Virus record (IMG/VR): IMGVR_UViG_2648501802_000002
Length of the DNA: 64,000 bases
Direction: 5' to 3' (one strand)
Source of the DNA: a virus
Taxonomy: Duplodnaviria > Heunggongvirae > Uroviricota > Caudoviricetes
Part shown: in pieces, positions 45,085 to 62,153 of the stretch
Position numbering within the stretch: the first letter of the stretch is position 1
How the letters are laid out: each line of letters starts with the position of its first letter
Program-made: the position numbers and the translations under genes
The notes under the pieces: generated by a model
Told to the model about the DNA's origin: nothing
The model's input: only the letters and a program-made list of their open reading frames with translations
The model's database searches: none

Positions 45085-46359
45085 ACGGCAAACATTCCCA
45101 ATTCACAGAGTCCGACCTAAACCACATGAAGCGGCTTAGGAATTACAGACTCTCCAAGGGCTAACACTGCCAGCCCGGCAGCTTTTATATTACGGGCCGC
45201 GTTAATATCACGATCATGCTCTGCGCCACATTCCGGGCAGTGCCATTTACGAATATTAAGAGGCATTTTTTGCATGGTGAAGCCGCAACTGCTGCAACGT
45301 TTGGAAGAAGGGAAATACTGGTCGATAGCGACAATGCTACGTCCACCCCATTCTCCTTTGTACTGGAGTTGGCGTACAAGTTCGCTCCAGCCTGCGTCAG
45401 CTATTGCTTTAGACAGCTTCGGGTTACGGATCATGTTTTTCACTTTAAGGGATTCGACGCAAACAACTTGGTTTTCGTTAATCAGTTTGCGGGACAACTT
45501 ATGCAGGTTATCCATCCGACAATCGACTATTCTCGCGTGGAGGCGGGCAACCTTTAAACGTGCTTTGGCGCGGTTCTTTGAGCCTTTTTGTTTCTTGCTC
45601 AATCTGCGCTGTAACACTGCTAATCGCTTCGCGTATTTAGCGTTGTGTCGAGGATTGCCAGTTTTAAAACCGGTATCGGTGACGAACAAATCTTTTAAAC
45701 CAATATCAATGCCGACCGTGGAAACGGTGATCGGCAGTGATACAGGCTCAAACTCGCAGAGACAGGATACAAAATATCGTCCGGCAGCATCCCTGGTGAT
45801 AGTGACAGTGGATGGAGCAGACGGCAACGGACGGCTCCAGCGAACATCTAACGGCTCTTTGCTCTTTGCCATGTACAGCTTGCCGTCACGGTATTTAAAT
45901 GCGCTGGCAGTTAGTTCTGCGGCCTGTTTATGCCGCTTGCTCTTAAAAACTGGGTATGCAGCACGCCCGGCGAAAAAGTTAGCAAAAGCCGTTTGTTGGT
46001 GGCGCAGAGACTGCTGGAGGGGGACGCAGGAAACGTCATTCAGCCAAGCGAATTCTGGTTCTTTTTTCAGTGCCGTTAATTTGGCGCTGGCTTGTGCATA
46101 GCCGACCCTCTCATGGCGTGCGTAGTACGCATCGGTGCGCCAGCGAAGGAGGCTGTTATAGACAAAACGCACACACCCAAAAGTCCGGGCTAATAGCTCG
46201 GTTTGTTCGGGAGTTGGATAGAATCGATATTTATAGGCACGCTTCATGTTCTATATAATACATTGAAACTAATGAGTATATAAATGAATACACGGACGAA
46301 AATGTTATCAAAGCCAATATACCAACAGACATTAGGTAAGGTAGCTGGAGGGCAATATA
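45085..46359 (-). mobile_element. tnpB-only IS200/IS605-type element between portal and protease genes (ends not defined)
   Basis: TnpB ORF fills the intergenic space; no tnpA ORF adjacent. Confidence 0.5.
45117..46247 (-). CDS. tnpB: IS200/IS605-family TnpB (RNA-guided endonuclease)
   Basis: 376-aa ORF starting MKRAYKYRFYPTPEQ, with C-terminal zinc finger CSSCG...CPECG. Confidence 0.85.
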   Translation of the reverse strand: MKRAYKYRFYPTPEQTELLARTFGCVRFVYNSLLRWRTDAYYARHERVGYAQASAKLTALKKEPEFAWLNDVSCVPLQQSLRHQQTAFANFFAGRAAYPVFKSKRHKQAAELTASAFKYRDGKLYMAKSKEPLDVRWSRPLPSAPSTVTITRDAAGRYFVSCLCEFEPVSLPITVSTVGIDIGLKDLFVTDTGFKTGNPRHNAKYAKRLAVLQRRLSKKQKGSKNRAKARLKVARLHARIVDCRMDNLHKLSRKLINENQVVCVESLKVKNMIRNPKLSKAIADAGWSELVRQLQYKGEWGGRSIVAIDQYFPSSKRCSSCGFTMQKMPLNIRKWHCPECGAEHDRDINAARNIKAAGLAVLALGESVIPKPLHVV

Positions 46360-57518: not shown

Positions 57519-57586
57519 AAGTTCCCTCCTACGTTGTCAGGAGGTAATGGTATGCAAAGTAACTTCTCAACCGGTCATGTTACTTG

Positions 57587-57620
57587 ACATCCTCCACGTC
57601 CTTTAGAGCGTGGAGGATGT
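57587..57620. other. perfect 12-bp stem-loop immediately 5' of the intron-like sequence
   Basis: ACATCCTCCACG (57587-57598), 10-nt loop, CGTGGAGGATGT (57609-57620). Confidence 0.8.
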
Positions 57621-58455
57621 GTGCGCCCAGCATGGGCGCGATCTTGGAGGTGAAAGCCCTCCCGCGAGCTGACCACAGCGAGCGAAAGGAAGTGCAACTG
57701 CGTGAGGGCGGCTAGGCGTGGGGAGGAAGCACGGAATGAACCCGTGAGCCGATGAACAAGAATCGGATATGAGGCGCGATGGAGCAAGGCGAGCAGGCAC
57801 ATCACTGCGAAGCTTTCGTGACAAAGTCGCGTAGATCCGACGGTTGTGCGGGGAAGGATCGCGTTCTTACCTGGGGAGTTCTCGCCTCATGCCTGAAAGG
57901 GCAACGTCGTAAGACGGAGCGAGAAGTCAGCAGAGGCCGTAGTAGTCAGGACTCCGACGAAGGGCCGAACGAGAAGGAAAGCCAAAAGATATGACTCTTG
58001 ACAGGACATTGCGTCAGAAGCCGGGGAAGCCCGGTACGGACCCGCATGCCGGGTGGTGTGGCAGGGGCGCAGCCTTGTGCTCCCCCCTATGCCGATCAAG
58101 CAGAACATTGTGCTGGGCCTCTGACGCATCTCCTTGATGGTCTTGGCATCGTGCTTAAGTGGATTGGTGTCGTCTCTGATAGGCTCATGGAGGCAGAATG
58201 AAACTCAAAAATCCGGGACAGCACGCAAAACAGGCTGCACAAAAAGCGCAGGTTGCGTAGGAGTGGAATCCCGCTCCCAAAAAATGGTGCAGAAGTTGCG
58301 GCAGTGGTCATCCGACGCACTGGAAAATAACAAACCCGCCGTGACCAGAATCGGAGGCCTGAGGGAGTGACCGTAAAACCGGATAACCCAGGCAGCAAAT
58401 ACCCGCTGGATGAGGCATGGTTCCGGCAGATAATACCGAAAACCGCCAGACACAC
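57621..58455 (+). ncRNA. group II intron 5' segment, ORF-less or 3'-truncated
   Basis: Begins GTGCGCCCAG (GUGYG 5' consensus); GC-rich with no long ORF; ends at an abrupt drop to AT-rich sequence; no domain V identified. Confidence 0.55.
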
Positions 58456-58516
58456 TGGATAATCAGTAGAAATAACCCATTAAAATCATTATAATAATTG
58501 GGCACATTATTATATT

Positions 58517-59080
58517 ATGCTGAATAATAGAGACATGAATATTAATGAACTTAAAGACTGTATTCACTATGAAGTAATCGGTAGCGAGCGTCCTTTCTCC
58601 TGGCGAAAGGCAATTGTTCGCGCAATAAAACATAGAAGAGTTCGTTATTTATTTTGGTGGCGCATAGCCAAATACCTTTTTGATAAAGGCGGATACTGTC
58701 GGAAGATTGCGGGGAAAATGGAACGTTTCATTCTTGATAAATATAGTGTAACAGTCCCTTTAACTGTAAATATAGGGAAAGGCTTTGATATTTCTTATCT
58801 CAACGGTGTTGTTATCGGTCACAAAGTAACCATTGGTGAAAATTGTTCAATAAAACCAGGGGTAACTATTGGGCTACGTGGTGATTTTAATGATATGGAT
58901 ATTGTTATAGGACATAATGTGACCATTGGTTGTAATGCCACCATTCTTGGTGGCAAAGTGCGTATAGGAAACAATGTCACAATAGGTGCTCATGCATTGG
59001 TATTGCATGATATTCCTGATGATTCAACATTCATCACTAAATTTCAGTCTGAAGTTATCTGCTCGTCCTCTTGCACATAA
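58517..59080 (+). CDS. hexapeptide-repeat (left-handed beta-helix) acetyltransferase
   Basis: 187-aa ORF with repeats [14 protein letters not shown] / [15 protein letters not shown] / [15 protein letters not shown]; AT-rich; 3' end overlaps the convergent U gene. Confidence 0.65.
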
Positions 59081-59661
59081 CCCTGATTCATCAGCTCTGG
59101 CCATACGATATCCGGAGCTGTACTGGTGTCAATTCGACTCACTAATACTCTGTATTTTCTCCAGGAATCCAGTTGTGAATTTTCCTCGGTTGTTGCTATT
59201 TCAAGATTAACTGCATCCTGCAGAATTGCGATGTTATCTGTTGCCTCCTGAATCAACCTTGCCTTTTTCTCTTCCGCTTCCCGTATCCGAAACAGTTTTT
59301 CTGCTTCCTCATCCTTCACCCAGGATACGCCGTCCCACTTCTGATACTCCCCTGCTGGCGACAACCAGGTGACATTCTCTGGTAACGGTCCGAGTTCAGA
59401 AATAAACAACGCGTCCCCCGATGCCACGTCATAGACCGTTTTACCACGATGGTCTTCAACAATAATCCATGATTCATTTTCACTGTTAAAAACTGCCACA
59501 AAGCCAGCAGGAATTTCCGGTGGGGCGATATCTGTAGAATTAGCTGGTAGCCCTGTATGAGGTGGAATATATGCGTCACCTTCACCAATAAACTCATTAG
59601 TTCCGGCGAGCAGGTTATAAATTTTTACAGTACGTGATTGTTCACTCATTCTGAATGCCAT
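59044..59661 (-). CDS. tail fibre assembly protein (U/Tfa-like)
   Basis: 205-aa ORF directly downstream of the receptor-binding fibre gene with ATGA overlap. Confidence 0.6.
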
Positions 59662-60552
59662 TATGCAAGCCTCACAATATAATTAAATGCGATGTTTTTA
59701 ACGGTGTTTTCCGAGTTACCAGCAGCGTTAACGGTGATGGTGTGTCCATGTGAACCAATCGCAACAGAGTGCGTATGAGCGCCAATATCAACTGTATGTG
59801 CATGCGCCCCTGCACTTGCAGCGGTGCCTGATACTGAGTGGGTGTGTGCACCAGAAGAAGGCACAGTTCCATTCCCCACCACAGTGCCGCTTGATGAGCC
59901 ATCAAGCCAGTCGAAATTCATACCGCCACCATCTGGTCTCCTTAATGGAACGGTATGAGTATGTGCGCCAGCACTATTTGCAGTACCAGATACATTGTGG
60001 GTATGTGCACCTGTGTTATTCGTTGATTTAGTACCGTAATCAAACGAAGATGTGGTTTTCGTACCCAAATCCGTATTGGATGCGCTGGCGCTGTGGGTGT
60101 GCGATTTAATGCCATCCTGTTCCAGAGACAATACGTCCCGACCACTGGCGGGTTTGCCCTTGATTGTCCAGCCACGCATATCCGGGATCACGCCTGACGG
60201 ATAAGCGGCTGCAAGTTTCGGGTATGCAGATTTGTCAAAAGTCTGTCCCTGCATCAGGGCGTAACCAGACGGCACAGTATCTGATGGCCACGGATGCGGA
60301 ACACCAACAGGAAGGACCTCAATATCCCCGGAACCATCAAACGAAACGTTATTAATTTTACGGGCTGTTTTCAGCTTTGTAGCCGTTGAGGCATTGCCGG
60401 ACAGCTCACCAGAAATGCCACCAACAACTGTTAGATCACCAGTTATTGTGCCGCCTGAACTTTCCAGTTTTTTAGCAACATCACTCTTAATAGAGTCGAT
60501 TTCTTTTTTTCAGATTAGTTATATCTGCTGGTATCGTTGTCACTGTTGCCAT
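59661..60552 (-). pseudogene. receptor-binding tail fibre gene with frameshift at an A7 tract
   Basis: AAGGA RBS + ATG at 60552 gives [16 protein letters not shown] then stop; removing one A from the run at 60504-60510 by hand gives a continuous frame of about 297 aa into ORF 59661..60275 (GAHTH repeats). Confidence 0.55.
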
Positions 60553-60725
60553 ATTAATTCCTTACGCCCATTCCCGCAGCGGTTGTTCTAATTGAACTTC
60601 AAAACCATCAAACATTTGTTGTTTCAAACTGTTGTTTAAAATACGAACATTAACGAAGAAGCCATCATTTTTAATCACTGTTGGTTCTTCGTTCTCGCCG
60701 TTTGGTATTTCGGTATATGTAACAC

Positions 60726-62153
60726 CTACAACATCAAGAAGAATGTTGTTTTGCAGCTCTTCATTATCGTGGTGCCGAGTTCTCTTAAACCAAGGTATTG
60801 GATAACAGCAAGGACGCTTGTTTTGGACAGAATATCGCGACCGACTGACGTTAAGTCAGTCTGAGAAACAGTGTCTGTACCGGTAAAGTACGGCAGTTTA
60901 TTTGCGCCTGTAGCAAGACCAGCAAGCGCGGTTAAAGTTGCATCCAGAGGCTGTTTGCCTGCCAGCGCATTTGTCATTGTTGTCGCAAAGTTCGGGTCAT
61001 TACCAAGTGCTGCGGCAAGCTCATTCAGGGTATCAAGAGCTTCTGGTGATGAACCAACCAATGCGGATATGGCAGCTCTTACATAAGCAGTCGTAGCAAT
61101 CTGCGTATTATTTGTGCCCTGCGCAGCCGTAGGCGCAGTAGGGACTCCCGTTAATGCAGGGCTTGCCAAAGGCGCTTTGAGGGCTAGGGCATTGTTGATA
61201 GTTGTGCTGAAATTCGGGTCGTTATTGATCGCAGCAGCTATTTCTTTAAGCGTATCCAGTGTGCCAGGTGCACCGTTGATAAGTGCCGTTATAGCTGACT
61301 TAACAAAGGCTGTATTTGCGATCTGCGTGCTATTTGTACCTTGCGCTGCCGTCGGCGCGGTTGGCGTTCCTGTCAGACTCGGGCTTTCTATTGGCGCTTT
61401 GGTATCAGCAAGACCTTTTACAGACTTAACGGCTTTAGGGGTAGCCGCCATTGTTTCGCTGTCGCTGTTAGTTTCGCTACTGAGCTGAACTAATCCCTTT
61501 TGCGTTGTGCTTGCATCCTGTGCCGTATACTTGCTTTTCGCCAGATCGTAGGCTTTTTTAGCTGCCAGCGAACTTGCAGCAACATCACTTCTGCTACTGG
61601 TTACAGAGTCTGAAATATCAATGCCGATCGTGCGGTTAATACGCTCGGATGTATCAATCATCTCCTGGGTAATGGCTGATACGCCAGCAGGGATATTCAC
61701 CGTACAAACAAGCAGCTCTCCATCTCCTAACTGATATGAATCGGTATAGGTTCTGGCAACAAATTCAGCCGCATGAATATGTGACGCGGTATTAACCTGA
61801 TAGGTATCCTCTCCAAGGAGGTATCTTCCCTTCAGCACAATTGCATATTTCTTGCCTTCACTAAGTGCAAGAGAAATATCCTTACGGTGCCGAATAGTTA
61901 CCTGGTAGAATTCACCAATATCCACTGACGCAGCGCCAGCAGTTTTATCACCATCCACTGAGGTGATTAACAGGTTCATACCACCGCCAGGCTTCGGCAG
62001 GAAACCGGCATAAAACCCAGGATCAACAATTCCCCTGAATTTTCGGTTTAGCGCGGCTGACAGATATGGTTCGTGGTATTGCACATCAGCCACCAGAGCC
62101 AGTGACTCGGGCGATGGGTAAGTAACTGATGTAACAACTGTAACGTCATTCAT
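60726..62153 (-). CDS. tail fibre protein, constant N-terminal part
   Basis: Start at MNDVTVV (62153, AAGGA RBS); Ala/Thr-rich repeats; ends 16 codons after the cix-like site with ...VIQYLGLRELG. Confidence 0.55.
   Translation of the reverse strand: MNDVTVVTSVTYPSPESLALVADVQYHEPYLSAALNRKFRGIVDPGFYAGFLPKPGGGMNLLITSVDGDKTAGAASVDIGEFYQVTIRHRKDISLALSEGKKYAIVLKGRYLLGEDTYQVNTASHIHAAEFVARTYTDSYQLGDGELLVCTVNIPAGVSAITQEMIDTSERINRTIGIDISDSVTSSRSDVAASSLAAKKAYDLAKSKYTAQDASTTQKGLVQLSSETNSDSETMAATPKAVKSVKGLADTKAPIESPSLTGTPTAPTAAQGTNSTQIANTAFVKSAITALINGAPGTLDTLKEIAAAINNDPNFSTTINNALALKAPLASPALTGVPTAPTAAQGTNNTQIATTAYVRAAISALVGSSPEALDTLNELAAALGNDPNFATTMTNALAGKQPLDATLTALAGLATGANKLPYFTGTDTVSQTDLTSVGRDILSKTSVLAVIQYLGLRELGTTIMKSCKTTFFLML
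60780..60805 (-). other. cix/hix/gix-like recombination site
   Basis: TTCTCTTAAACCAAGGTATTGGATAA: 12-bp inverted half-sites around an AA core, close to hixL TTCTTGAAAACCAAGGTTTTTGATAA. Confidence 0.6.

Follow-up and report, generated by a model that had tools for sequence, protein, structure and literature searches.

Which element lies between the lysis genes and the tail-fibre module of a P1-like phage-plasmid, at the place where P1 itself carries the cin invertase gene? The question is raised by positions 57587-58455 of the IMG/VR virus record IMGVR_UViG_2648501802_000002 (Caudoviricetes), a stretch of 64,000 nucleotides referred to here, at its full length, as the window. A preliminary description, made from the sequence alone, had placed a group II intron fragment of about 830 bp there, directly behind a perfect 12-bp hairpin. 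The element is a bacterial class C (IIC) group II intron that has suffered an internal deletion, and it is very probably a dead remnant, derived from a copy that was inserted at full length and then decayed in place.

The intron sequence begins with GTGCGCCCAG at position 57621. Megablast searches against plasmids and complete Escherichia coli genomes showed that 57587-58455 is a mosaic: all 869 bp were carried by about 35 plasmids and 31 E. coli genome records (pSCEC128 and pHYEC7-mcr1 are examples of P1-like plasmids with the relic), and three P1-like plasmids, pSCU-120-2 (L005), NZ_CP033848.1 (L020) and H132, carried the hairpin and the last 360 bp without the intron. The empty site reads GGAGGATGT directly followed by CAAGCAG in L005 and L020 (in the full form of the alignment, CGTGGAGGATGT followed by CAAGCAGAACATTG), and the window has 476 extra bases at this point. 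Because the intron-free plasmids lack exactly these bases, the insert, an ORF-less IIC intron relic of 476 nt, corresponds to 57621-58096 on the + strand; it runs from GTGCG at 57621 to TATGCCGAT, with GAT as its 3' end at 58096, and the 3' exon starts with CAA at 58097-58099 (+ strand). The group II intron 5' end proposed at 57621 was therefore confirmed by both the GTGCGCCCAG start and the exact boundary of the empty site, but the proposed length of about 830 bp, up to 58455, was not: 58097-58455 is present entire in the intron-free plasmids, and 58101-58455 is a fragment of a tape-measure gene. A 3' truncation of the intron at the GC-to-AT transition at 58456 was excluded by the same alignment.

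The covariance-model search for domains I-IV that had been suggested in the preliminary description gave two hits above the Rfam gathering scores, both on the + strand: RF02001 (group-II-D1D4-3) at 57702-57866 with 95.5 bits (gathering score 32), corresponding to the domain I core, and RF01998 (group-II-D1D4-1) at 57884-57965 with 46.8 bits (gathering score 35), corresponding to the region of domains II-III. No open reading frame (ORF) of reverse transcriptase (RT) size was found in 57587-58455, as had already been reported.

The structure of the relic was clarified by full-length relatives. An intron of 1832 nt with a 456-aa ltrA intron-encoded protein (IEP; WP_000186915.1 in L006) was found in two E. 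coli chromosomes (L006, positions 4029-5860), and a frameshifted copy in a third (L014). The 5' 414 nt of the window copy aligned to L006 4029-4448 with 405 of 420 positions identical, and its final 62 nt were collinear with L006 5799-5860. The 1350 bp in between (L006 4449-5798), from IEP codon 15 through the 5' strand of domain V (D5), are missing from the window. The deletion junction, at 58029-58034 (+ strand), is a 6-nt microhomology, GCCCGG, which is present at both break points in L006, around IEP codons 13-15 and in the D5 5' strand. An ATG and 14 codons of the RT/maturase ORF remain before the junction (57991-58034, + strand, starting MTLDRTLRQKPGKP). The identical junction was present in a more divergent P1-like subgroup (pHYEC7-mcr1, L015; 467 of 483 positions identical), so that the deletion was a single event, older than the split of the two P1-like subgroups. 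Where the preliminary description had left open whether the intron was ORF-less or truncated, the first proved right, through the 1350-bp internal deletion; both ends are intact, and since domains V and VI are present, the element is internally deleted and not truncated at its 3' end.

In the searches of plasmids and complete E. coli genomes, the deleted form was seen at one locus only, and the full-length copy was kept in 3 of 5,426 complete E. coli genomes, while independently truncated copies were common. F-type plasmids carry an independent, internally deleted copy of 286 nt (L003; pEB2, CP006000.1, 5001-5320), whose junction differs from that of the window; this copy is flanked by a ccdB-like "gyrase inhibitor" gene and by sopA, and the hairpin in front of it is homologous and partly decayed. 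Between ygiV and parC, about 1,358 of the 5,426 chromosomes contain a 3' remnant of this IIC intron. The remnant is unannotated, consists of the end of the IEP ORF, D5 and domain VI (D6) followed by the 3' exon CAAGTCTAC, and is carried by K-12 derivatives and O104:H4, among others (for example in E. coli DH5alpha, NZ_CP026085.1, about 2435-2725 of L016). In the Enterobacter kobei plasmid pIB2020_IncFIB (L008), the 3' end of one group II intron is followed after 2 nt by another that has an ltrA of its own (about 4333-4340; GAT, then GC, then GTGCGCCAGG), indicating that two introns were inserted in tandem.

Domain V, which the preliminary description had not recognised, was located by homology and folding at 58026-58057 (+ strand) in a degenerate form, and domain VI at 58060-58093 (+ strand), with a bulged A at 58089 as its branch point, at a distance of 7 nt from the 3' splice site. 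D5 was identical in the full-length copies of E. coli, Vibrio, Enterobacter, Rhizobium and Halomonas (ACCGCCCGGUGCGGACCCGCAUGCCGGGUGGU; the undamaged form begins ACCGCCCGGUGCGG), whereas the D5 of the window (GAAGCCCGGUACGGACCCGCAUGCCGGGUGGU, beginning GAAGCCCGGUACGG) differs from it at four positions. The deletion replaced the first three bases, turning the C of the triad into an unpaired A and breaking one further basal pair, and G58036 was changed to A in the distal stem, which is thereby weakened. The canonical D5 fold has an energy of -9.9 kcal/mol in the window versus -22.1 kcal/mol in the reference, and the basal pairs are no longer formed in the minimum-energy structure of the window D5. 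The distal stem of D6 varies among relatives, with every sequence still folding into a hairpin. The Rfam D5/D6 model matched neither the window (at E ≤ 10) nor the full-length reference, so that its silence is uninformative for this lineage.

Neither an intact IEP (14 codons are left) nor an intact catalytic D5, both expected of an autonomous mobile intron, was found in the window copy. Substitution divergence between the two P1-like subgroups was 9 of 476 positions for the relic (1.9%), equal to that of the flanking pseudogene fragment (7 of 359) and of the lyd genes (26 of 1359). Intron activity has probably been lost, as suggested by the loss of the IEP, the damage to D5, a divergence no different from that of neighbouring sequence and the restriction to a single locus.

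The features that define IIC introns include a D5 distal stem 2 bp shorter than in IIA and IIB introns and a triad that reads CGC instead of AGC (Toor et al. 2006, PMC1702495), together with a small ribozyme, an AGGAA bulge, a short pairing between exon-binding site 1 (EBS1) and intron-binding site 1 (IBS1), the absence of EBS2 and a 5' exon that bears a stem-loop (PMC1702495). The reference D5 has 32 nt, a distal stem of 3 bp and a CGC triad with a G.U wobble, and the reference ribozyme is small (370 nt lie ahead of the ORF start and 85 nt beyond the ORF stop). The 456-aa reference IEP contained only the RVT_1 and GIIM Pfam domains, without an endonuclease domain. Its best match in the PDB was the GsI-IIC RT (433 bits, full length), followed by the IIC maturases of E. 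rectale and R. intestinalis, with far lower scores for IIB T.el4h (149 bits) and IIA LtrA (134 bits). An AGGAA (the epsilon-prime bulge motif) lies in the domain I core of the window at 57724-57728, aligned to the GAAGGAA of the Rfam consensus. EBS1 (ACATC, 57799-57803, + strand), identified by alignment and covariation in a terminal loop of domain I, also within the RF02001 match, is complementary to IBS1 (GATGT, 57616-57620, + strand), the last five nucleotides of the 5' exon, and the two form a 5-bp pairing as ACAUC and GAUGU. Across 67 relatives with identifiable ends, EBS1 and IBS1 shared a mean of 4.07 contiguous pairs (1.01 +/- 0.16 with shuffled partners; none of 2000 shuffles reached the observed value). 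As for EBS2, no complement of at least 5 nt to exon positions -13 to -6 was found in domain I, where matches were at chance level. The IEP, the reference D5, the AGGAA motif, the EBS1-IBS1 pairing and the absence of EBS2 all place this lineage in class C. An RmInt1-like (class D) origin had been considered on account of 63 matches in Sinorhizobium plasmids; these span only positions 443-511 of the query, i.e., the conserved D5 and D6, and the origin was rejected because the IEP comparison puts the lineage in class C.

The hairpin in front of the intron is a perfect inverted repeat, with arms at 57587-57598 and 57609-57620 (12 of 12 positions complementary) and a 10-nt loop. Folded as DNA it has an energy of -15.6 kcal/mol (z = -5.7), and none of 200 shuffled sequences folded as well. 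The stem-loop reported earlier was thus borne out, as was the position of a class C intron immediately 3' of it: the 12-bp stem ends at exon position -1. An intrinsic terminator was also considered and rejected, since the hairpin has no T-run and was not called by a terminator scan.

Judged by homology, this hairpin is the solo right-end palindrome of IS609-type elements, TnpB-bearing insertion sequences (IS) of the IS200/IS605 family. The 5' exon at 57586-57620 (+ strand) makes up the left 35 nt of a palindromic unit of 38 nt (GACATCCTCCACGTCCTTTAGAGCGTGGAGGATGT followed by CAA) related to the IS609-type right end, and the intron splits this unit between T and CAA, so that its last three nucleotides form the start of the 3' exon. 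The unit, from GACATCC to GGATGTCAA, is uninterrupted in pSCU-120-2. In L006 and L014 the intron lies directly behind an insQ/tnpB gene, and a stretch of 469 bp that precedes the intron in L006 and contains the hairpin was present in 4,907 of the 5,426 E. coli genomes, where it forms the 3' end of the insQ element (IS609-type). IS609 with the intron inside it is carried by strains MFDS1019527 and MFDS1022581. An uninterrupted IS609 copy reads ATCCACGTCCTTCAGGGCGTGGAGGATGT followed by CAATATCGG, with the junction between GGATGT and CAATATCGG. The hairpin and the following sequence up to GGATGTCAA were homologous to the ends of insQ/tnpB elements in L013, L019, L006, L014 and L025. In five independent contexts of this intron lineage of E. 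coli, the 3' exon starts with CAA and diverges thereafter, which places the intron 3 nt inside the end of the IS element; in the decayed F-plasmid copy the 3' exon starts with CGA in place of CAA. A right end of the IS200/IS605 family is made up of a subterminal hairpin, a short linker and the cleavage motif at the terminus, with tnpB directly upstream; cleavage by TnpA at TCAA is assumed here by likeness to IS608.

The 38-nt palindrome also stands on its own in about 2,700 enterobacterial plasmids, at 2-4 copies per plasmid, and in a Klebsiella copy (pKPN-e44, L018, 2501-2538) compensatory changes were found in both arms. This dispersed repeat, with the consensus GACATCCTCC(A/C)CG(T/C)CCTTTAGGGCG(T/G)GGAGGATGTCAA, resembles a solo or miniature form derived from the right end of IS609. 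The palindrome of the window is likewise solo, with no adjacent tnpB, and the window holds neither a second copy of the hairpin nor an IS609 copy. The only TnpB-like ORF in the window (45144-46241, - strand; 34% identical to IS609 InsQ over 390 aa) is 11 kb away and positionally unrelated to the hairpin at 57587.

From these data we propose the following history. A full-length copy of about 1.83 kb, encoding a 456-aa RT/maturase without an endonuclease domain, would have retrohomed into a free-standing IS609-type right-end palindrome that, in one P1-like phage-plasmid sublineage, lies between the lydA promoter and a gene for a hexapeptide acetyltransferase. Target recognition would have been of the kind seen in other IIC introns, by way of a stem-loop in the DNA and a short IBS1 (GAUGU, paired with ACAUC of EBS1), and the intron would have come to lie at the palindrome's end, between T and CAA. 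A later 1350-bp deletion across GCCCGG would have removed the IEP from codon 15 onward and replaced the first three nucleotides of D5, and a further G-to-A change would have altered the D5 distal stem. The relic, situated upstream of the acetyltransferase promoter, would since have been inherited passively with the plasmid as part of a non-coding patchwork. We infer the order of the two events, insertion first and deletion second.

Some observations weigh against this history. Searches of plasmids and E. coli genomes found no P1-like plasmid with a full-length copy at 57620/57621, and no column of domain I was found to covary as the EBS3 partner of IBS3, the first base of the 3' exon, among six sequences. 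The A.G triad mismatch and the weakened D5 would be expected to be deleterious, which for this particular ribozyme is a prediction. The relic is also well conserved (97-100% identity across about 35 plasmids), as would be expected from recent common descent, yet this may be compatible with function as well.

The alternative that fares best, though we regard it as improbable, is that the 476-nt element is a functional non-autonomous intron, still able to splice, and open to mobilisation in trans when a full-length relative sharing the cell provides the RT/maturase. It has kept its splice-site ends, EBS1, D6 with the branch A and most of D5, and ORF-less group II introns mobilised in trans are documented and have been proposed for phage introns (PMC12350094). 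Set against this, D5 is invariant in the lineage and the window copy departs from it at a triad base, a further basal pair and the distal stem; the deleted form occupies a single locus, the helper IEP is present in just 3 of 5,426 E. coli genomes, and the relic has diverged to the same extent as neighbouring junk sequence.

Slightly less probable again is an inverted order of events, in which an intron RNA that had already lost its ORF elsewhere was reverse-spliced into the P1-like site with the aid of a helper IEP. The end-point of the deletion lies inside D5, the catalytic centre needed for reverse splicing, and no second site with the same junction was found; the repeated origin of internally deleted copies, seen at the F-plasmid locus L003, fits such an order, as does the lack of a full-length copy at this site in P1-like plasmids, but the F-plasmid copy has a different junction, indicating an independent deletion in situ.

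That hairpin and intron arrived together as a recombination block from another replicon (for instance IS609 carrying the intron, or an F-type plasmid) instead of by retrohoming is very unlikely, in spite of the ~90% identity of the hairpin and first 178 intron nt to F-type plasmids and of a shared unit starting at the same GACATCC in both contexts, given that intron-free P1-like plasmids have the complete 38-nt palindrome at the same position with the same downstream module, that the insertion boundaries are the exact intron ends, and that the palindrome is dispersed on ~2,700 plasmids independently of the intron. Full-length insertion followed by decay in place is therefore retained as the preferred explanation.

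Insertion at an IS609-type end appears not to be limited to E. coli. In a survey of 80 IEP relatives from species-representative genomes, seven of the closest (L022, L024, L025, L028, L029, L034 and L035; 75-86% amino acid identity; metagenome-assembled genomes (MAGs) of several phyla) were inserted between GAGGATGT and CAA, behind hairpins whose stems differ in sequence yet stay paired. TnpB homologs end 40-80 nt upstream of the intron in three of them (L025, L029 and L035). In all, nine full-length relatives were inserted at this site, at least five with a TnpB homolog that ends 40-80 nt upstream. A further locus, L023, has a distant TnpB, and its EBS1, AACAC, matches the variant exon GAGTGTT. 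More distant relatives (44 of the 67 with identifiable ends) were located a few nucleotides past GC-rich stems with T-rich terminator tails, and the ~80%-identical plasmid copies of Vibrio, Enterobacter, Rhizobium and Halomonas were likewise found behind GC-rich stems with T-rich tails. An IIC sublineage not described so far could thus have switched its homing from Rho-independent terminators to IS609-like right-end palindromes, inserting between GAGGATGT and CAA, a proposal that we hold with about equal measures of confidence and doubt. From the sequences compared, this putative sublineage would span E. coli and MAGs of Nitrospirota, Verrucomicrobia, Methylotenera, Burkholderiales and Methylacidiphilaceae. 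No report of a link between group II introns and IS609, IS605, IS200 or TnpB right ends was found in searches of open-access papers and bioRxiv.

Among characterised introns, the element resembles the IIC introns B.h.I1 (Bacillus halodurans), O.i.I1 and GsI-IIC in its small ribozyme, short D5 distal stem, CGC triad, AGGAA motif, short EBS1-IBS1 pairing, lack of EBS2 and endonuclease-less RT/maturase, closest to the GsI-IIC RT. It differs from them in that its 5' stem-loop is an IS200/IS605-type right-end palindrome without a T-run and not a Rho-independent terminator, that IBS1 (GAUGU) is not U-rich, and that the IEP is lost and D5 damaged. The nearest precedent for a IIC lineage adopting a hairpin other than a terminator is provided by the IIC-attC introns (PMC3001079, PMC7923331), a sublineage that moved from terminators to another conserved DNA hairpin; like the IS609 ends, attC hairpins belong to a different mobile-DNA system acting on single-stranded DNA. 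The target in the window is, unlike theirs, an IS609-type palindrome (GAGGATGT followed by CAA) and no integron is involved. ORF-less introns of Thermosynechococcus (PMC2882425) and of phages (PMC12350094) have, as here, kept both ends and lost the ORF of domain IV; those are intact ribozymes thought to be mobilised in trans, whereas the deletion in the window enters D5 and occurs at one locus only. The "intergenic" phage intron of PMC12350094 (ON470608) was also compared and belongs to an unrelated lambdoid phage, being a different intron. IStrons (bioRxiv 10.1101/2023.11.20.567912) likewise couple a self-splicing intron to a TnpB-type IS, beside the region from which the omega-RNA originates. 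Their intron is of group I and belongs to the transposon itself, whereas here a IIC retroelement was inserted 3 nt inside the right end, and the window has a solo palindrome without an adjacent tnpB.

The window as a whole is a P1-like phage-plasmid, with hdf, lydB and lydA (darA operon) on the - strand up to 57518. Homology to P1 ends at about 57584, directly before the hairpin. In P1 the lydA promoter is followed by lydC, cin and cixL; for neither cin nor lydC was a homolog found anywhere in the window, and a single cix-like site is kept at 60776-60796 (21 of 21 positions matching the P1 cixL region). In this P1-like sublineage lydC, cin and half of the C segment have been replaced by the palindrome, the tape-measure fragment and the acetyltransferase module. 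Relative to P1, the preliminary description was thus correct in placing the element where cin is expected, but the module that replaced cin is also present in intron-free relatives, and the intron consequently did not displace cin. The tape-measure fragment (58101-58455, + strand), akin to an internal stretch of a P2-type tail tape-measure gene, is non-coding and common to the intron-free P1-like plasmids; its first part, 58101-58294, is ~80% identical to the internal part of such a gene, and 58096-58455 contained no intact ORF, only two ORFs without a Pfam domain. The GC-to-AT transition at 58456 marks the edge of this fragment and is followed by a promoter-like site (58467-58495).

A gene for a hexapeptide-repeat acetyltransferase (58517-59080, + strand), annotated as "serine acetyltransferase" in relatives, lies between the lysis and tail-fibre modules, where P1 has cin, and its 3' end overlaps a convergent tail-fibre assembly gene (59044-59661). 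The tail-fibre S gene (59661-62153, - strand) appears to be broken: compared with the pSCEC128 homolog, residues 1-465 map to 62153-60759 and residues 926-1181 to 60431-59664, with about 460 codons missing between the two parts and an in-frame stop at 60726-60728, 13 codons past the sole cix-like site. The sole match of 100% identity to 57587-58455 was at 2150180-2151048 of NZ_CP007393.1, a record labelled as an E. coli ST2747 chromosome, in which a P1-like element may be integrated or may have been assembled into the chromosome record; the other full matches were, with one exception, on plasmids of ~90-120 kb.

For the window itself the finding is of little consequence: the element is an unannotated, ordinary decayed relic, probably inert, whose proper label would be that of a class C intron remnant. 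Through it, a temperate phage-plasmid lineage joins the phages with group II intron sequence, a list opened recently. Covariance searches demanding a D5/D6 match would miss the element. It also offers a clean, datable example of the death of a bacterial group II intron, in which a deletion at a microhomology took the RT gene and clipped D5. If the switch of target proposed above is true, the insertion point would, in intact IS609-type elements, part the hairpin recognised by TnpA from the cleavage motif and coincide with the junction between the scaffold and the guide of the omega-RNA, and splicing of the intron would then be required for transposon excision as well as for the RNA-guided nuclease; plasmids and phage-plasmids would offer extra landing pads in the form of solo palindromes. 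If this is borne out, IS609-like ends would constitute a new class of IIC targets in addition to terminators and attC sites. They would also provide a case, open to testing, in which one selfish element parasitises both the single-strand DNA structure and the guide-RNA locus of another.

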